A DNA stretch of 19,876 nucleotides from contig JBHLLO010000057.1 in assembly GCA_048885535.1 (NCBI GenBank), positions 1 to 19,876 of the forward strand, in the 5' to 3' direction. Under the pieces are notes generated by a model. That model searched no databases, was not told the origin of the DNA, and worked only from the letters and a program-made list of their open reading frames with translations. Positions 5,773 to 18,046 of this stretch are shown in pieces. The number at the start of each line of letters is the position of its first letter. Positions within the stretch are counted from its first letter, which is position 1. The position numbers and the translations under genes are program-made. Source of the stretch: Candidatus Hermodarchaeota archaeon. GTDB taxonomy: Archaea > Asgardarchaeota > Lokiarchaeia > Sigyniarchaeales > SOKP01.

Positions 5773-5989
5773 GATTGAAAATAAGAAGCAAAAATTATAA
5801 GAATTTAGATTATCCAATATAATCTCAAATAAATGATAAAAATGTCGAAGAAAAACAATCTCTTTTATTTTACTTATCAAAAATTCCAGAAAATTTTTAT
5901 AAAATTTAATGATTACATAAACACAATTAGTTTAAATTAGCTAATTTAAAAAAAAATAAATTTATCAAACAATAAATAGGTAGAAAAAC
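5773..5989. promoter_or_regulatory. Divergent promoter region between hypEDF and the hydrogenase operon
   Basis: Very AT-rich intergenic region between head-to-head genes. Palindromic TTTTATAAAA at 5895-5904 could act as a TATA box in either direction; exact elements are not assignable by eye. Confidence 0.45.
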
Positions 5990-7340
5990 ATGGCAGTGAA
6001 AGTTGCTTTTATGCAATGCTCCGATATGGTAAAAATGTTCAATTTTTCCACGGAAGTGCTGGGGCTGCCACCAGAGCCTACTTAACGCACATTTAGGCTT
6101 ATTACCGGTACTCCCAGCATTGGATATTGTATATTGGCCAGCTGTAGTTGATTTCAAATATGACTCTTTGAAAGCAAGACCAGATGGAGATATTCTTGTA
6201 GGATTTGTTGAAGGAAGTTTAAGAACAAAAGAAGATGTAGAAAGCGCAAAATTAATGCGTGCCAAATGCAAGTTAATTATTGCCTTTGGTAGCTGTTCTT
6301 GTTATGGGAACGTTCATGGTTTAGCAAATGTATGGGACGTTCAAGAAGCTATAGATCGAAAGTTTAAACAAGCGGAATCAATAACTAATAGAGATACAGC
6401 AGGAGAACCTAAAAAACATACTCCTGGATTCGAAAGTAAAATTGTACCTTTAGACGAAGTTATAAAAGTGGATGCATATATAGGGGGCTGCCCACCAAAG
6501 CCGGAAGCTATCATCTCTGCGGTTCAATTTCTGCTTGGACAAAAGCCTCAACCAAAATCTGAAAGAACATTCTGCAATGATTGCATTTTACGAGAGAGTG
6601 GATGTTTATTAGAGAAAGGCACATTATGTTTTGGACCTATCACAAGTACTGGATGTTCATTAAAATGTACGAATGATGGTAAACCATGTGTTGGATGTTT
6701 TGGACCAAGTACTTCTGTAGACGGTAGAGCAAGTAGACTAAATGATATGCTTAGAAATATTGATAGCTTTAAATCAGGAGATAAAAAGAGTTTGTATGAA
6801 TTTTTAGCTCTTTTCTTGAATATACCATTGATGGCAGGCTTTGATTTAGCGGGAGATATATTAAAACAAGTTAAGAGGACTGGTTCACCTCAAACTCCTT
6901 TAGCTGAAATGCCTTCACAAACAACCGATATCGCTACAACTATTATGACATATCTTAGAGATCACCGAGAATTTTTAACTATCTCGAATGTCTGTGATAC
7001 TTGTGATCGTGTAATCGGAAGTGCGTCTAGAATGACAAGAGTCAAGAGAGATTATGAGGGCTTACCAAATATGACTGATTGTTTTATTGAACAAGGATAC
7101 CTCTGTGCGGGACCAATTACGAAAGCTGGCTGTGGTGGTTTATGTATACGGGTCAATGCTCCCTGCTCTGGCTGTTTTGGTCAGACAGAATGGAATGTTG
7201 ATCAAGCAGAGAGATTTGCTGAAGTAGCTACAAAAGGCTTCAATGTGGCTTTATCTAAGGAAGAACTTTTATTCCAAATTAAGGATAAGATTGGTTTTTC
7301 TGAGAAGTTCACATTAGCTGCTAATAAAAAATATAGGTAG
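5990..7340 (+). CDS. vhuG: F420-non-reducing [NiFe] hydrogenase small subunit (MvhG/VhuG), join(5990..6025,6057..7340), 439 aa after splicing
   Basis: The ORF track starts at 6120 and lacks the first CxxC. ATG 5990 gives MAVKVAFMQCSD, and the main frame from 6057 gives CWGCHQSLLNAHLGLLPVLPALDIVYWPAVVDFK. Also FVEGS, AFGSCSCYG, GGCPP and C-terminal Cys-rich domains. Confidence 0.93.
6026..6056 (+). other. 31-nt BHB (archaeal endonuclease-type) intron in vhuG mRNA
   Basis: Outer helix GC(6018-19)/GC(6058-59); central 4-bp helix UCCG(6020-23)/CGGA(6051-54); 3-nt bulges AUA(6024-26) and AGU(6055-57); inner helix UGG/CCA plus AAAAAU/AUUUUU. Cutting after the second bulge nucleotide on each strand joins GAT|TGC in frame. 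Confidence 0.9.
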
Positions 7341-7350
7341 GTGAAAAAAA

Positions 7351-8655
7351 ATGGTAAAAGAAATTGAAGTTGAGCCTGTCACTCGTTTAGAAGGACATGG
7401 CGGATTGAGGTTAGTAATAGGCGATGATGGCAAAGTTCAAGACGTGCAATTTAATATTACTTCTACAAGATTCTTTGAGAAATTTCTTGAAGGACGATAC
7501 TGCGAGCACATCCCTCGAATTACTCCAAGAATTTGCGGTATTTGCCCAATTCCCCATCATTTAACTCCTACTAAAGCTGTAGAAGATGCATGGGGTATAC
7601 AAATTCCAACACCTGCATATAAGTTACGTCAATTATTACAAAATGCAAAGCAGTATTCTTCTCATGCACTCCACTTCTATGCATTAGCAGCACCAGATTT
7701 CTTACTTGGACCTTTTGCAGATCCAGCATTAAGAAATGTTGTTCATGTAATCAGTAAGATGCCTGATGTCGGTGCGATGGCTCTAAAGATGATGGACTTC
7801 GGTCAGAAGCTATGCGCAGCTATTGGGGGTAAATCAGTACATCCTATTTCTGCCATAGTAGGTGGAATGAAGAAACCAATGGATGAAAGCGTACGTGATT
7901 TATTCTTAAAACAAATTGAAGATCAGGTAGAATGGACAAAAAAGACAGTCGATATAGGGTTAAAAGTAGTAGAAGATTATTGGGATGTCGTAGCCAACGT
8001 AGGAGTTGTGCCTACTTATTATGCTGGTATGACTAAAAATGGTGTTCATGATATTTATGATGGAGATCTCCGTATAGTCTCCCCTGAGGGACAGAAGTTT
8101 GACTATCCTCCTCAAAAATATCTAGAGGCTTTAGGTGAACATATTCCAGAACATTCTTATGCTACTCATATGTATTATAAGCCAGCAGGATACCCTGCAG
8201 GTATATATCGAGCTAATACATTAGCAATGATTAATTGTGCTGATAGAATGGCTACACCTTTAGCCGATGAAGCATTACAGGCAATGAGAGCAAAAGTTGG
8301 ACAAGTATCTCATCATACATTTGCATATCACTGGGCTCGATTAATTGAATTAGTAGAATCGATTGAAATAATTGCTACATTATTACAAGACGATGATATA
8401 GTTAATCCTAATTGTAAAACATTTGATGTCCAACCAAGAGAAGGAGATGGAGTTGGTCTTACTGAAGCTCCTAGAGGAATACTCTTGTATCATATATGGT
8501 CTGATGGTGAAGGCATATGCAAAAAGGCAAATCTCTTAGTAGCTACGAATCATAATATTGCGGGTATTGAGAAAACATTAATGCATGTAGCCAAACAAGT
8601 GTTCGAACAAAATGCTTTATCCGGATTAAAATTACCAGACCCTTGGATTAAATAA
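7351..8655 (+). CDS. vhuA: [NiFe] hydrogenase large subunit (MvhA/VhuA), split form lacking the C-terminal L2 motif
   Basis: EPVTRLEGHG, L1 motif RICGICPIPH, GGKSVHP, EAPRGILLYH, ANLLVATNHN. No DPCxxCxxH at the C-terminus; that part is encoded by the next gene. SD AGGTGA upstream. Confidence 0.95.
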   Translation: MVKEIEVEPVTRLEGHGGLRLVIGDDGKVQDVQFNITSTRFFEKFLEGRYCEHIPRITPRICGICPIPHHLTPTKAVEDAWGIQIPTPAYKLRQLLQNAKQYSSHALHFYALAAPDFLLGPFADPALRNVVHVISKMPDVGAMALKMMDFGQKLCAAIGGKSVHPISAIVGGMKKPMDESVRDLFLKQIEDQVEWTKKTVDIGLKVVEDYWDVVANVGVVPTYYAGMTKNGVHDIYDGDLRIVSPEGQKFDYPPQKYLEALGEHIPEHSYATHMYYKPAGYPAGIYRANTLAMINCADRMATPLADEALQAMRAKVGQVSHHTFAYHWARLIELVESIEIIATLLQDDDIVNPNCKTFDVQPREGDGVGLTEAPRGILLYHIWSDGEGICKKANLLVATNHNIAGIEKTLMHVAKQVFEQNALSGLKLPDPWIK

Positions 8656-8675
8656 AAAGGAGGAGTATAAATAAG

Positions 8676-8859
8676 ATGAGTGAAGATGTACCAGAAGGAG
8701 TAGTAAATCTTCTTGAAATGATAGTCAGATGCTTTGACTCTTTGGTTAATTCAACCAAGTGGAGTATACTGCTGACTATCCTGCGCCGCTCATATAACGG
8801 TCGTGAAAGAGAATGGCGAGGAGGTTTATTCTCGAAAGTTGAATGTTGGCCTTGGATGA
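8676..8859 (+). CDS. vhuU: Selenocysteine-containing hydrogenase peptide VhuU, join(8676..8736,8768..8859), 50 aa: MSEDVPEGVVNLLEMIVRCFDCULSCAAHITVVKENGEEVYSRKLNVGLG
   Basis: SD AGGAGG. Exon 1 gives NLLEMIVRCFD (cf. NxxEMxxRAYDP). The +1 frame gives TGC TGA CTA TCC TGC GCC GCT CAT (C-U-L-S-C-A-A-H), the L2 Ni-binding motif, then a cleavable tail and TGA 8857-59. Confidence 0.88.
8737..8767 (+). other. 31-nt relaxed BHB intron in vhuU mRNA
   Basis: Central helix GCUU(8731-34)/GAGU(8762-65) with two G-U pairs; bulges UGA(8735-37) and AUA(8766-68); inner hairpin UUGGUU/AACCAA; exon-exon helix AUAGUCAG(8721-28)/CUGACUAU(8772-79). Pairs flanking the bulges are imperfect. The boundary can slide up to 3 nt (ACT repeat) with an identical spliced product. 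Confidence 0.8.
8773..8775 (+). other. In-frame UGA read as selenocysteine in vhuU
   Basis: Falls at the first Cys position of the L2 motif (UxxCxxH), as in methanococcal VhuU, and has a SECIS about 80 nt downstream. Confidence 0.88.
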
Positions 8860-8917
8860 ATATCCAATATAAATAATAGATTGGATATGACTACCCACGC
8901 AAGGGTTAAAGCCAGCA
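8844..8917 (+). promoter_or_regulatory. Eukaryote-type SECIS element
   Basis: AUGA(8856-59)...GA(8889-90) core; 9-bp helix AUAUCCAAU(8860-68)/AUUGGAUAU(8880-88); A-rich apical loop (AAUAA 8872-76). Possible lower helices UGG/CCA, CCU/AGG and UGUUGGC(8844-50)/GCCAGCA(8911-17). Confidence 0.85.
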
Positions 8918-8971
8918 AATAAATGAAATGAATAAAAAAGTTTTAAAAGTTAACGGAAAACGTGAAAAAAA

Positions 8972-9490
8972 ATGTCGATTGATTTCGAATTTAGAAAACA
9001 AATTATGGATTTTCATATAGGGTCTGATCTAATTAAATATTGCTACCAATGTAGTCGATGCGCTGATAATTGTCCAGTCACAAACGTAACTACAGATTTT
9101 TATACGACTACAGGATATAATCCACGTAGTAACATCCTAAATGCTCTATTGGGATATAAGGATGCTATCTTTTCAGCAGATCCCTTAACAATTTGGGGAT
9201 GTACAGTTTGCGACACATGTGACGAGGTTTGTCCTCAAAAAATCGAGCTTACTGAAATATTTACTTTCTTGAAAAATAAATCAACAGAACAAGGTAATGC
9301 TCCCGATTTTATCTATTCTCAAGCAAAAACAATATTCGATAATGCTAAAGCAATTCCTCCACAACCTGCAATTGAAAGGCGAAGGGATCAATTAGGGTTA
9401 CCGACAATAATGACACCAGATATCAGTGAACTTCAAACATTATTAAGAAATATTGGAGCTAATAAAAAGATCATAGAAAAAGAGGGATAA
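8972..9490 (+). CDS. hdrC: Heterodisulfide reductase subunit C
   Basis: Two [4Fe-4S] motifs, CYQCSRCADNCP and CTVCDTCDEVCP; directly upstream of hdrB. Confidence 0.93.
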   Translation: MSIDFEFRKQIMDFHIGSDLIKYCYQCSRCADNCPVTNVTTDFYTTTGYNPRSNILNALLGYKDAIFSADPLTIWGCTVCDTCDEVCPQKIELTEIFTFLKNKSTEQGNAPDFIYSQAKTIFDNAKAIPPQPAIERRRDQLGLPTIMTPDISELQTLLRNIGANKKIIEKEG

Positions 9491-9494
9491 AGCA

Positions 9495-10352
9495 ATGACA
9501 GAATATAAAATGTTTGAAGGTTGTACAATAGGGAATCGTATTCCTTTTATAGAAGCTGCTTCAAGGAAAGTATTTGAGAAAGTAGGGATTGAAACATCAG
9601 AAGCTCCGTTTAGCTGTTGTCCTGATCCCACAGGAATGAAGAGTTTTGATAATGATGCATGGTTAGTAATTGGAGCTCGGAACCTTAGTCTAGCTGAAGC
9701 TGAAGGAAAAAATATCATATCGCTTTGTAATGGATGTGCTAATACTCTCAGAGGAGTGCAGCACCAATTAAAACACGATTCCTTAAAGAAAGAAAAAGTA
9801 AATCAACAACTAGCAAAAATCGGTAAACAATTCAACGGAAGTATAGAAGTAAAGCATTTTGTGGATGTCTTGCTGGAGAATCTTGATAGAATAAAAGGAG
9901 CAATTACTAAACCATTAAGCGGGTTAAAGGTTGCTGTTCACCCAGGTTGTCATTATATGAGACCAGCAGAATGGATGGAAAATGATGATCCACTAAGACC
10001 TCAAAATTTAAAGAAACTGGTTGCAGCTTCTGGAGCTACTGTTGTGGACTATGAAAGTTTAGCTTTATGTTGTGGATCAGCAGTTACTAATGCTTATGAA
10101 GAACATGGGTTAGCAAATCTAAAAATCAAATTAGATGATATCAAAAAAGCTGGAGTGGATGTAATTTGTGTAAACTGTCCCTCATGTTTTCAGCAATTTG
10201 ATACCCGTCAAAAAGATTTAGGCAAAAAATATGAGACGGAATATGACATTCCTGTTTTATATGTGACAGAATTATTAGCACTGGCTATGGGGATTAGTCC
10301 GGAAGATATAGGGCTAAAATTTCATAGAACGCGATTGAAGACCCAAATATAA
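9495..10352 (+). CDS. hdrB: Heterodisulfide reductase subunit B
   Basis: Two CCG domains: GC..CCPDP..CNGC and PGCH..CCGS..CPSC, with ARNL and IPVLYVTELLALAMG. Confidence 0.95.
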   Translation: MTEYKMFEGCTIGNRIPFIEAASRKVFEKVGIETSEAPFSCCPDPTGMKSFDNDAWLVIGARNLSLAEAEGKNIISLCNGCANTLRGVQHQLKHDSLKKEKVNQQLAKIGKQFNGSIEVKHFVDVLLENLDRIKGAITKPLSGLKVAVHPGCHYMRPAEWMENDDPLRPQNLKKLVAASGATVVDYESLALCCGSAVTNAYEEHGLANLKIKLDDIKKAGVDVICVNCPSCFQQFDTRQKDLGKKYETEYDIPVLYVTELLALAMGISPEDIGLKFHRTRLKTQI

Positions 10353-15874: not shown

Positions 15875-18046
15875 ATGATAGCTGATCACGATATCTCTTA
15901 TTTTTTCAATCCAAAAAGTATATCCGTAGTTGGAGCAAGTCCTACTCCAGGTAAAGTGGGATATAATGTATTGAAGAATATAATAGACTCCGGTTATTCA
16001 GGTAAAATTTATCCTATTAATCCCACAGCAACAGAAATTCTTAATAATAAAACATACAAAAGCGTACTAGATGTTGTAGATGAAATAGATATTGCTATTT
16101 TAGTCATTCCTGCTAAAAAGGTCCTAGCTGTAGCTGAAGAGTGTGGAAAGAAAAAAATTAAGGGTTTAGTTGTAATTTCAGCTGGTTTTAAAGAGATTGG
16201 AGCTGAAGGTATTCAAAGAGAGCGTGATCTTATTAATATTGCAAAAAAATACAATATGAGGGTTATTGGTCCTAATTGTTTAGGGTTTGTGGGAAGCCGA
16301 TATAATGGATCTTTTGCAGCTAATACTCCTAAAAAAGGACATATTGCTATGATCTCTCAGTCTGGAGCAATGCTAACAGGAATGATGGATTATTCTATGG
16401 ACCAAGCTTTTGGATTTTCATGCAATATTAGTTTGGGTAATAAAGCCGATCTTGATGAAGTTGATTTTATTGAGTACTTATCAGAAGATCCTGAGACAAA
16501 AGTTATTTTATGTTATTTAGAGAGCATAGAAAGTGGAGAAAAGTTCCTAAAAATTGTTCCCAAAGCCTCTAAAAAAAAGCCAATAATTATTTTGAAAGCA
16601 GGAATCAGTGAGGCTGGAGCTAGAGCGGCATCTAGTCATACAGGGGCTCTAGCAGGTTCTAATATCGCATATACACTTGCTTTTGATAAGTGTGGAGTTT
16701 TACGAGCAAATACTATAGAAGATTTATTTGATTATGGCGAAATTTTTCTTTTTCAGCCGATTCCTAAAAAGAATTCTTTTGCTATAATTACTAATGCAGG
16801 AGGACCTGGAATCGTGGCAACTGATGCATTTGAACGCGAAAATTTAAGGTTTGCGGAATTTTCAGAACCAATACTCCATCAATTAAGAAATGAACTTCCT
16901 CTAGAAGCCGCTATATTTAATCCCATTGACATTATTGGAGATGCTTCACCCAAACGCTATGAATTCACTATTAAAACTATATTTGGGTTAAATTCTGAAA
17001 ATACTCCTATAAAAATTAATAAAGAGGATGTAACAACTTATGGAGCACTGATTATAATGTCTCCTCAAGCACAAACGCATCCAAATGACGTCGCTAAAAT
17101 AATTCATAATATTTCTAAGAACTATTTATCAGAAAAACCTATAGTATGCTCCTTTATTGGAGGCATTTCAATCAATGAAGCTACTAGATATTTAAAGCAA
17201 AATTATGTCCCCTGTTATCCTTTCCCTGAAGAAGCAGCCCAATCTCTGAAAGTAATGGTTGATTATAGTGAATACCTAAAAAAAGTCCCCTTAGATGAAA
17301 TAAAAGTCCCTCAATTTAAAGTGAAAAAGAGAAGGGTTAGGGAAATATTTAAAAGTGCTAGAAACGACGGTAGAACTGTTCTTTTAAGTCATGAAACAAG
17401 TGAGGTTTTTGAATGTTATGGAATTAAATCACCAAAATCAAGATTAGCAAAAACACCTCGGGAAGCCATGAAAATTCAAGAAGAACTAGGAAATGTTGTA
17501 ATGAAAATTGTAAGCCCTCAAATAATCCACAAGGTTGATGTGGGGGGCGTTGTATTAAATATTAATTCTCCCGAACAAGCATTTGAAGCATATATTCAGA
17601 TTGTAGATAATTCAAAAAAATTTGGTCCTCAAAACGCAATAATCTATGGCGTAGAAGTACAAGAATTTATTAAATATAGTAAAGAAAAGAAGGTTAATGA
17701 ATTAATCATAGGAATGTCAAGAGATCCCCAATTTGGTCCTCTATTGATGGTTGGATCCGGCGGGATTTATGCGAATTTTCTAAAAGACGTCTCATTTGCG
17801 CTCTCGTATATGTTTACTAAGGAGGATGCTAAAAATATGTTACAAAAAACTAAGATTTTTAGTTTATTACAAGGGGTAAGAGGTGAAAGTCCTTCTGATA
17901 TAGAAGCAATTATTGAAGTATTGCTTCGACTCTCCCAATTAGTAAATGAATTTCCAGATATCATGGAATTGGATATTAATCCTCTTTTAAGTTTTATAGA
18001 AGGGTATTCTGCCGTTGATATAAAAATTACAATTTCCCGTGAATGA
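15875..18046 (+). CDS. acdAB: Acetate-CoA ligase (ADP-forming), fused alpha-beta subunits
   Basis: CoA-binding domain (VVGAS, SAGFKE, GPNCLG), phospho-His SSHTGALAGS, TNAGGPG, NPIDIIGDA, and ATP-grasp with HKVDVGGV, DPQFGP and ELDINPL. No GNAT domain. Confidence 0.92.
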   Translation: MIADHDISYFFNPKSISVVGASPTPGKVGYNVLKNIIDSGYSGKIYPINPTATEILNNKTYKSVLDVVDEIDIAILVIPAKKVLAVAEECGKKKIKGLVVISAGFKEIGAEGIQRERDLINIAKKYNMRVIGPNCLGFVGSRYNGSFAANTPKKGHIAMISQSGAMLTGMMDYSMDQAFGFSCNISLGNKADLDEVDFIEYLSEDPETKVILCYLESIESGEKFLKIVPKASKKKPIIILKAGISEAGARAASSHTGALAGSNIAYTLAFDKCGVLRANTIEDLFDYGEIFLFQPIPKKNSFAIITNAGGPGIVATDAFERENLRFAEFSEPILHQLRNELPLEAAIFNPIDIIGDASPKRYEFTIKTIFGLNSENTPIKINKEDVTTYGALIIMSPQAQTHPNDVAKIIHNISKNYLSEKPIVCSFIGGISINEATRYLKQNYVPCYPFPEEAAQSLKVMVDYSEYLKKVPLDEIKVPQFKVKKRRVREIFKSARNDGRTVLLSHETSEVFECYGIKSPKSRLAKTPREAMKIQEELGNVVMKIVSPQIIHKVDVGGVVLNINSPEQAFEAYIQIVDNSKKFGPQNAIIYGVEVQEFIKYSKEKKVNELIIGMSRDPQFGPLLMVGSGGIYANFLKDVSFALSYMFTKEDAKNMLQKTKIFSLLQGVRGESPSDIEAIIEVLLRLSQLVNEFPDIMELDINPLLSFIEGYSAVDIKITISRE

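Follow-up and report, generated by a model that had tools for sequence, protein, structure and literature searches.

Results

The vhu operon and its interrupted small gene

The stretch of DNA analysed here (the window, 19,876 bp) is contig C57 of a metagenome-assembled genome (MAG), labelled G000, which is 3.09 Mb in size, 91.6% complete and divided into 112 contigs. Within the window, vhuG, vhuA, the small gene vhuU and ORFs similar to hdrC and hdrB form an operon (Table 1), with hyp maturation genes lying upstream of it on the opposite strand. The homologs of VhuA at 81–93% identity originated from MAGs labelled Promethearchaeota or Promethearchaeia, with a few labelled otherwise, and we therefore regard the host as a Loki-type Asgard archaeon. 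Loci of its relatives are referred to below by L-numbers.

Downstream of vhuA, the ATG at 8676 opens an ORF that is listed with 66 codons and the stop TAA 8874–76. Its first 21 codons resemble the segment that precedes the C-terminal Ni-binding motif in the large subunits of [NiFe] hydrogenases, and past the Asp codon no sensible reading follows in the original frame. In the +1 frame, positions 8770–8856 encode CULSCAAH and a 21-residue tail if TGA 8773–75 is read as selenocysteine (Sec). The VhuU of L085, an uninterrupted ortholog, aligns to residues 422–456 of MvhA (5odc_F, E = 2e-5), for which the solved Hdr–Mvh complex 5odc served as the source, and its Sec is aligned with the first Cys in the MvhA stretch DPCLSCATH, i.e., within the C-terminal CxxCxxH Ni-binding motif. 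A Pfam search gave no match for the 50-residue VhuU peptide alone. Judged by homology, vhuU is thus probably a selenoprotein gene of ~50 codons that supplies the C-terminal Ni-binding motif of a Vhu/Mvh-type [NiFeSe] hydrogenase; C-terminal proteolytic maturation of its product is inferred on homology only. The gene is followed by a SECIS-like hairpin, whose shape matches the lokiSECIS described previously (PMC4989117), and which is conserved, with a covarying stem, in the alignment with congeners (same genus). Rfam returned no match in positions 5900–9000 at E-values up to 1, this hairpin included.

Table 1 Features of the vhu operon and of the putative introns (C57 unless another contig is given; H, central helix of the bulge-helix-bulge motif, BHB)
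Feature	Position	Strand	Evidence or remark
vhuG	start 5990, body to 7340	+	operon member
vhuG site A, putative BHB intron, 31 nt	6026–6056	+	H 6020–23/6051–54; bulges 6024–26 and 6055–57
vhuA	7351–8655	+	operon member
vhuU (small gene)	start 8676	+	operon member downstream of vhuA
vhuU exon 1	8676–8736	+	start codon to G of the Asp codon; contiguous alignment with 26 congeners; region matches MvhA 422–456
Exon-exon helix, 5' arm	8721–8728	+	pairs with 8772–8779 (holds Sec UGA); 8/8 pairs in G000 and L064
BHB central helix H, 5' strand (GCUU, exon 1)	8731–8734	+	4/4 paired with 8762–8765, two G-U; paired in G000 and L064; ensemble pair probability 0.18–0.23
5' bulge UGA	8735–8737	+	3 nt unpaired, flanked by H and the inner helix; predicted cut 8736/8737
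vhuU putative mini-intron, 31 nt	8737–8767	+	BHB-predicted borders equal the MAFFT gap columns; homologous insert in L064 2727–2757
Inner intron hairpin h'	8738–8761	+	6-bp stem 8742–47/8753–58, 5-nt loop, 3 closing positions
BHB central helix H, 3' strand (GAGU, intron)	8762–8765	+	pairs with 8731–34; also partner of the competing ACUC 8737–40
3' bulge AUA	8766–8768	+	predicted cut 8767/8768
vhuU exon 2	8768–8859	+	Sec TGA 8773–75, stop TGA 8857–59; translation; conserved in all relatives
Exon-exon helix, 3' arm	8772–8779	+	same pairing evidence as 8721–8728
SECIS-like hairpin	8860–8888	+	9-bp stem 8860–68/8880–88, 11-nt loop; TAA 8874–76 of the unspliced ORF in the loop
hdrC- and hdrB-like ORFs	8972–10352	+	operon members after vhuU
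vhuD-like gene, putative intron, 31 nt	C28:26133–26163	-	canonical: GUAC/GUAC helix, AAU bulges, 4/4 pairs in both flanking helices

The reading frame of vhuU is broken by a heritable 31-nt insert

To align vhuU we used 29 relative loci returned from the same genus, leaving out L022, L028 and L031, which were cut or too divergent. The 31 extra bases are found in G000 alone among the 27 aligned sequences, and all 26 alignable congeners lack them and read an uninterrupted CFD-CU-LSCAAH. MAFFT placed the gap at 8737–8767 in two independent alignments; with ACT present at either end, the border could lie at any of 4 positions, and four neighbouring 31-nt windows give the identical product. With the insert removed, the conceptual VhuU of G000 is identical at 50/50 residues to that of L085, its nearest intron-less relative. 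The exons are under purifying selection, as is shown by the codon differences from the three closest intron-less relatives (16–18 synonymous vs 2 non-synonymous).

The insert is rare. A looser pattern specific to the insertion had G000 as its only true match in 154 genomes of the order (a match in G090 proved to be a false positive when the matched string was read). With a tighter degenerate pattern, in which the CF(D) codons had to be separated from the C-U-L-S-C codons by 20–50 additional bases, there were no matches in the GTDB collection of one genome per species, from which the window's own genome was possibly left out, and a single match in metagenome contigs, namely L064. This independent contig represents another organism, sharing 76% identity with G000 and 86% with L008 across ~3 kb, and it contains a 31-nt insert at the same vhuU site that is identical to the G000 insert at only 20/31 positions, while 41/44 positions of the flanking exons are identical.

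We considered whether the insert could be an artefact of assembly or binning. In favour of this explanation, 31 is a common k-mer length and G000 is metagenome-assembled, in 112 contigs. Against it, the insert does not duplicate adjacent sequence and the full 31 nt do not occur elsewhere in the G000 genome; a homologous insert is present in the independent L064 assembly, and the sibling insert in vhuG described below is present in four other independently assembled genomes. In addition, a search of sequencing runs retrieved four DNA runs of one study that contain 80–96% of the sampled words of a 2951-nt stretch of the locus, with a 99%-identical contig that spans 8737–8767 remaining unconfirmed. 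An artefact is all but excluded by this evidence; the insert is real and heritable, and its size and site in vhuU are exact. As to a possible source copy, the best other match in the genome covers 17/31 nt (C44:16763–79, antisense in an acyl-CoA dehydrogenase-like ORF) and was judged to be chance.

The borders of the insert form a relaxed BHB motif

The literature on tRNA places the BHB cut directly 3' of the second base in each bulge. We applied this rule to a geometry of one 4-bp helix H, formed between the last bases of exon 1 and bases near the 3' end of the intron, with a 3-nt bulge on each strand. The canonical cuts would remove 8737–8767, which is one of the four windows that homology allows. 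The motif in vhuU is relaxed, in that two of the four pairs in H are G-U, there is a mismatch in the inner helix h' (3/4 of the positions adjoining the bulges are paired, and then a 6-bp stem follows), and in the outer helix h only 1/4 of the adjoining positions is paired, with an 8-bp exon-exon helix offset by 2 vs 3 unpaired bases. The L064 motif is nearer to canonical, and its H pairs 4/4 with one G-U, as one G-U of G000 is A-U there. Across the two copies, 88.9% of the cells of the inner hairpin are paired, with two pairs changed on both sides, and 95.2% of the cells of the whole structure are paired, compared with 26–45% at slid registers. A covariation shuffle test was weak, since only two intron copies are available (131/500 shuffles reached the observed score). 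The exon-exon helix is not peculiar to the interrupted genes: at least 7/8 pairs form in 62 of 77 distinct vhuU sequences, intron-less relatives included, and 81% of its cells are paired vs 13–56% when the partner is slid.

Motif statistics are by themselves modest. Across the genome, ~2.5% of the positions tested (52,779/2,108,515) show a central helix with 4/4 pairs for a given pair of borders, and given the four equivalent borders the chance of one at the vhuU site alone is ~0.1. The weight of evidence therefore rests on the L064 copy and on the sibling introns rather than on the motif alone.

These results bear on a preliminary description of the locus made from sequence alone, which had proposed a BHB intron of 31 nt, cut 5 nt upstream of the Sec codon, with CFD-CU-LSCAAH restored by its removal. 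All of the features it had listed are present (the ORF, the +1 TGA, the GCUU/GAGU helix, the UGA and AUA bulges, the ACUC/GAGU pairing and the 8-bp helix), and its core claim is supported by the congeners and by L064. The comparison with intron-less VhuU genes that it had suggested as a check shows the exact restored junction in 26 of 26. Also correct were its account of an unspliced frame that runs on to TAA 8874–76 in the SECIS-like stem-loop, where the TAA lies in the loop, and that of the 8-bp exon-exon helix holding the Sec UGA, to which its conservation in intron-less relatives is now added. It had named conservation of the 66-aa unspliced ORF as a protein among relatives as an observation that would refute the intron; the out-of-frame parts of the unspliced ORFs of G000 and L064 are unrelated as protein, while the in-frame exon 2 is conserved, so that the proposal is not refuted on this count. 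Its alternative 25-nt register (8743–8767, giving FDSYCU) was rejected, because two additional residues at this point are seen in none of the homologs; the six bases that would be retained also differ between the G000 and L064 copies and would give different residues.

Putative sibling mini-introns in vhuG and other genes

vhuG is likewise broken, with a +1 shift after its ATG at 5990, and the responsible insert (site A) is common to G000 and its three closest relatives, with a strongly diverged 31-nt copy in L008 that fits the structure column for column. Its BHB is near-canonical (UCCG/CGGA helix, bulges AUA and AGU) and approximates the minimum free energy (MFE) fold, with H pair probabilities of 0.58–0.74 and no competing pairing. 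Over the five sequences 98.7% of the cells are paired, against 33–53% at slid registers, and 7 of 15 pairs have changed on both sides (including one H pair and one exon-exon pair), a covariation score that 0/500 shuffles reached. Because this frame-breaking insert has persisted through speciation in an otherwise intact gene, we infer that it must leave the message, for which there is no RNA evidence. A second vhuG site (site B), ~35 nt downstream of site A, holds inserts of 29–30 nt in L008, L009 and L015. At the borders defined by MAFFT, H pairs 4/4 in seven of nine insert instances and 3/4 in the other two. L144 has 31 extra nt at the vhuG site that form no clean BHB at any frame-restoring length. 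A joint MAFFT alignment put the vhuG-type and vhuU-type introns 8 columns out of register.

Two further cases were seen in G000. In a vhuD-like gene on C28, the PF02662 match begins only at profile position 16 because of a 31-nt insert (Table 1), which is absent from 29/29 orthologous loci. The last structural scan brought up a stop-containing insert of ~30 nt in an hdrD-like Fe-S gene on C41 at about 16058–16087, which the scan placed 2 nt off the register defined by homology. At this site 16 of 26 readable relatives have an uninterrupted SC-MGCGDC and 10 of 26 carry an insert; the inserts are 29–34 nt long in eight sequences (G000 included) and 56–61 nt in three. H pairs 4/4 in seven of the eight short versions and 3/4 in G000, although these counts were corrected by hand and are less secure.

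The siblings weigh on two other explanations for vhuU. According to the first, vhuU is a pseudogene that was recently inactivated by the insertion, and its resemblance to a BHB is a coincidence. This would be consistent with the presence of the insert in G000 only among species-representative genomes, with the ~0.1 chance of the motif alone and with the lack of RNA evidence. However, another organism has a homologous insert of the same length, with compensatory changes, at this very site; no damage is seen in either exon, the Sec codon, the stop or the SECIS-like hairpin; the conceptual product has the same sequence as the protein of a relative, and a search of G000 for a second copy of vhuA or vhuU found none; and three further BHB inserts of 30–31 nt, frame-breaking or stop-bearing, are found in related G000 genes, one of them across five species and another in 10/26 relatives. 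We thus regard a pseudogene as very unlikely.

The second explanation is that ribosomes bypass the 31 nt without any RNA processing, by programmed hopping as in phage T4 gene 60. A stable hairpin in the gap and the fixation of the gap at 31 nt in several genes would agree with bypass. Hopping in T4 gene 60 uses identical take-off and landing codons; here these are unmatched in G000 (GAC, then UAC) and the 3' border in L064 differs. Moreover, what is conserved is a helix of 4 bp and its two bulges of 3 nt, a feature that hopping does not call for, and bypass is therefore virtually ruled out. Even taken jointly, pseudogene, bypass and artefact retain very little likelihood.

A competing fold and the question of regulation

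The unconstrained MFE fold of the vhuU region uses the ACUC/GAGU pairing in place of H (−22.3 kcal/mol, z = −4.34, 0/200 shuffles as low), and constraining the BHB costs 5.8 kcal/mol in G000 and 1.7 kcal/mol in L064. The competition suggested in the preliminary description thus held at the level of the MFE fold; the switch function it attached to this competition is an inference that was not tested. In such a regulatory gate, the RNA would toggle between the spliceable BHB and the more stable ACUC/GAGU fold and tie VhuU synthesis to a signal or to the availability of the splicing endonuclease EndA, as an addition to the intron reading rather than an alternative to it. Points in its favour are that the competing fold is the MFE in G000, that L064 has an equivalent competing pairing (ACUU with AAGU), that there is a joint change at intron positions 4 and 26 (C-G to U-A), as fits the competing helix, and that the four G000 introns all lie in Hdr/Vhu-type genes by Cys/Sec ligand codons. 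Against it, the BHB model accommodates the changes at positions 4 and 26 just as well (U-G to U-A, C-G to U-G), the vhuG sibling has no competitor and a BHB near its MFE, the competition can be explained by mere resemblance of the exon strand to the 5' end of the intron, and there are no expression data. We consider the gate unlikely.

Turnover of inserts between relatives

In a tree of 80 distinct loci (FastTree, midpoint-rooted; supports were not inspected), the nine insertion-bearing loci all fall in two neighbouring clades of 13, and no insertion is present in the remaining 67. One of these clades is bracketed by G000 and L064, a distribution that fits inheritance followed by precise losses. 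The two vhuG introns of L008 are both missing from L064, and L008 in turn has no vhuU intron, in a pair that is 86% identical.

Genome-wide scans

Genome-wide scans that combined the BHB with the joining of ORFs gave no excess at the true register over slid registers, which means that the BHB motif alone is not diagnostic and that the scans provide no count of introns. We also took a motif-free census of indels in the window and in C1:1–60000 against five relatives, in which the sole insertion inside a gene of a length that is not a multiple of three was 8737–8767. This census missed the known vhuG intron both times and thus recovered one of two positives, being insensitive near gene starts. 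The further census candidates C1:13417–47, C1:52124–43 and C57:13252–68 were discarded as intergenic or 5'-leader sequence.

Splicing enzymes and sequencing runs

G000 encodes two genes of the EndA family (PF01974), located in the regions C6:30393–30617 and C1:55964–56212, as well as RtcB at C2:49044–50351. Among solved structures, one EndA has its best match in the catalytic subunit of the Aeropyrum pernix heterotetramer (3p1z_B) and the other in the EndA of Methanopyrus kandleri and Methanocaldococcus jannaschii. Asgard archaea have been reported to possess an (alpha-beta)2 EndA with an L1 loop, a type that cleaves relaxed motifs (PMC5829648).

The search of sequencing runs also returned one RNA run, with 6% of the sampled words. 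It was the only RNA run with any of the stretch, and its 75 contigs were all <95% alike and represent relatives only, which leaves no usable RNA of G000. When the runs X1, X2, X4 and X14 (the last being the RNA run) were aligned to the stretch, skips of 31 nt were seen exactly at 6025>6057 (X1, X4, X14), as was a net skip of 31 nt at the vhuU site (X4). As they are also present in DNA runs, we assign these skips to intron-less relatives; they neither support nor refute splicing.

Discussion

A probable minimal intron in a selenoprotein message

Our data indicate that 8737–8767 is most likely a real, minimal pre-mRNA intron of the BHB type in vhuU. The insertion with its size and site, the motif, the diverged homologous copy, the sibling introns and the enzyme genes are shown above, while splicing is inferred in the absence of usable RNA reads, as are cleavage and ligation in vivo and the identity of the enzyme. 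In the mechanism that we propose, exon bases 8731–34 of the primary transcript would pair with intron bases 8762–65 and thereby set out two 3-nt bulges, in each of which an EndA of the heterotetramer type would cut once, after 8736 and after 8767, and RtcB would join the vhuU exons. Only after splicing would UGA 8773–75 be in frame and be recoded to selenocysteine, aided by the SECIS-like hairpin downstream, whereas the unspliced mRNA would yield a 66-residue nonsense product. A gene of only ~50 codons would thus need splicing, UGA-to-selenocysteine recoding and C-terminal trimming (by homology) to produce one Ni-Se ligand peptide. The preliminary description had made the same point; with respect to its three steps, splicing remains an inference without usable RNA and proteolysis rests on homology only.

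There are practical consequences. Automated gene prediction will report vhuU, vhuG and related genes of such genomes as broken or missing, and this could introduce errors into reconstructions of hydrogen metabolism and into selenoprotein censuses of Asgard MAGs.

Comparison with known systems

Introns in archaeal protein-coding genes are very rare, and the textbook case is cbf5 in Crenarchaeota. The cbf5 pre-mRNA introns (Watanabe 2002; Yoshinari 2006; Yokobori 2009, PMC2738675) likewise place a BHB at the exon-intron borders inside a protein gene, and share with our case a link to a hetero-oligomeric splicing endonuclease and patchy gain and loss among relatives. The present case differs in its host lineage (Asgard/Promethearchaeota), in its hydrogenase and Hdr-type redox genes and in having several sites in one operon, with turnover between species of one genus. 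Splicing of cbf5 has been shown experimentally (PMC2738675), whereas that of vhuU is inferred.

Asgard archaea are believed to be the lineage that gave rise to eukaryotes. In the full-text literature that we searched, which yielded the papers on cbf5, on Asgard tRNA introns and on the selenoproteome, there was no report of introns in mRNA or protein-coding genes of Asgard archaea. The published papers PMC4989117 and PMC11227280 mention no interruption of vhuU under the terms 'intron', 'frameshift' or 'pseudogene', supplements not being covered. The probable vhuU intron belongs to a known but rare kind, of which no Asgard case was found in the literature searched.

VhuU as described in Methanococcales and Lokiarchaeota (PMC4989117) similarly has ~50 codons, a single Sec and a downstream lokiSECIS-like hairpin (9-bp stem, 11-nt loop), and its gene is likewise arranged alongside vhuG, vhuA and hdr genes. 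The unconventional splicing of HAC1/XBP1 mRNA in eukaryotes offers a more distant parallel: there too an endonuclease cuts in the bulges of an mRNA stem-loop, ligation is of the RtcB type (PMC8718801) and a change of frame decides the protein. The nuclease in that system is Ire1 and the process is regulated by stress. It differs from ours in both respects, and there is no evidence that the introns are homologous.

A possible family of introns at metal-ligand codons

Each of the four introns that we saw in G000 is located in an Hdr/Vhu-type gene and adjoins Cys or Sec ligand codons. The link may be genuine, though for now it is a lead and not a result, because two of the four were found while we were examining such genes. 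A bolder reading, which we hold to be no more than possible, is that one clade of a Promethearchaeota genus carries a family of minimal BHB introns of ~29–31 nt, gained and lost between sister species, that prefer the metal-ligand Cys/Sec codons of the Hdr/Vhu electron-bifurcating machinery. The positions in question are between D and CWGC in vhuG, between D and CU in vhuU, just after the first Sec motif in the vhuD-like gene and inside CxxCxxC in the hdrD-like gene. If true, this reading could mean site-specific insertion via pairing of the intron 3' end with the exon, i.e., mobile introns within protein-coding genes of the archaea most closely related to eukaryotes, or else a splicing step that acts as a shared post-transcriptional gate on the Hdr/Vhu system. 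The differences in presence and absence among sister species also provide a natural system for the study of gain and precise loss of enzyme-spliced introns in coding sequence.

The non-canonical tRNA introns of Asgard archaea (bioRxiv 10.64898/2026.10.13.758758, PMC11291895) involve the same presumed enzymes and motif, repeated lineage-specific gains and persistence limited to sites at which the exon is able to provide one half of the motif. They differ from the vhuU intron in that the host RNA of the latter is an mRNA, and it is a reading frame that is broken and not a cloverleaf. Neither of these two studies reports protein-coding introns in the sections that bear on introns. ARAGORN called an intron, unreliably, in 23 of the 34 listed tRNA genes of G000, and the tRNA-Sec of Loki has been described with an intron of 31 nt (PMC4989117).

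Intron sites in vhuG

The intron that follows the Asp codon of vhuG and precedes the CWGC Fe-S motif is common to the source genome G000 and three close relatives, with a diverged copy in a further locus, L008. Covariation was found at 7 of its 15 pairs, and none of 500 randomised alignments reached an equal or higher score. A second vhuG site, past the NAH codons and ~35 nt downstream of the first, is occupied in three species, where the 4-bp central helix of the bulge-helix-bulge (BHB) is paired at 4/4 positions in L008 and at 3/4 in both L009 and L015 (coordinates of all features are collected in the table). Splicing of these and the other introns described here is inferred, and no usable RNA reads were available.

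In one relative, L144, the N-terminus of vhuG carries 31 additional bases close to the first intron site, for which no clean BHB could be found at any length that restores the frame. These bases may represent a decayed intron, or a shorter intron together with additional codons, or the gene may be a pseudogene. In other species (L128, L131; L098, L100, L102, L110), additional segments of 25 nt and 17 nt coincide with the vhuG start or lie immediately upstream of it, and these could be alignment effects in the 5'-leader.

Positions of introns, inserts and RNA structures
Feature	Location	Strand	Remarks
vhuG BHB intron, 31 nt	window 6026-6056	+	basis: alignment, covariation
Second vhuG intron site	L008:4042-4114	-	29-30-nt inserts (all three loci)
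	L009:188-261		
	L015:188-261		
31-nt insert, vhuD/mvhD-like selenoprotein gene	G000 contig C28:26133-26163	-	locus L235
~30-nt insert, hdrD/glpC-like Fe-S gene	G000 contig C41 ~16058-16087	-	locus L266/L267
Exon-exon helix enclosing the Sec UGA of vhuU	window 8721-8728 with 8772-8779		pairing kept in relatives
Hairpin, 9-bp stem and 11-nt loop	window 8860-8888		immediately 3' of vhuU stop

Inserts elsewhere in the source genome

The insert in the vhuD/mvhD-like gene is situated directly past the first Sec motif, between the copies of a 9-nt direct repeat, and presents a fully canonical BHB with both flanking helices; it is missing from all 29 of the orthologous loci. Within the CxxCxxC motif of the hdrD/glpC-like gene lies an in-frame insert with stop codons, which G000 shares with 10 of the 26 relatives readable at this site and which varies in both sequence and length (29–34 or 56–61 nt). 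Counts of paired positions in its BHB helix were adjusted manually for an off-by-one and are less secure.

ARAGORN retrieved 34 tRNA genes genome-wide, tRNA-Sec among them, and predicted introns in 23, many placed at odd positions. These calls are unreliable, but they agree with published accounts of some Asgard archaea whose tRNA sets are rich in introns.

RNA structures of vhuU and a match to its intron elsewhere in the genome

An exact antisense copy of the initial 17 nt of the vhuU intron is found at C44:16763-16779 of G000 (blastn-short E = 0.003), within an acyl-CoA dehydrogenase-like ORF, a match that we judged to be due to chance.

The helix enclosing the Sec UGA is kept in intron-less vhuU genes, with at least 7 of its 8 pairs formed in 62 of 77 distinct sequences. 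Across these 77 sequences its columns were 81% paired, versus 13–56% when the pairing partner was shifted in register, and the perfect 8/8 helix occurs in eight sequences, among them both intron-bearing genes. The helix might be a structure acting on Sec decoding, or the property of the exons that allows the intron to be retained. The hairpin beyond the stop codon matches no Rfam family; it is conserved with a covarying stem, and its shape is the same as that of the published lokiSECIS.
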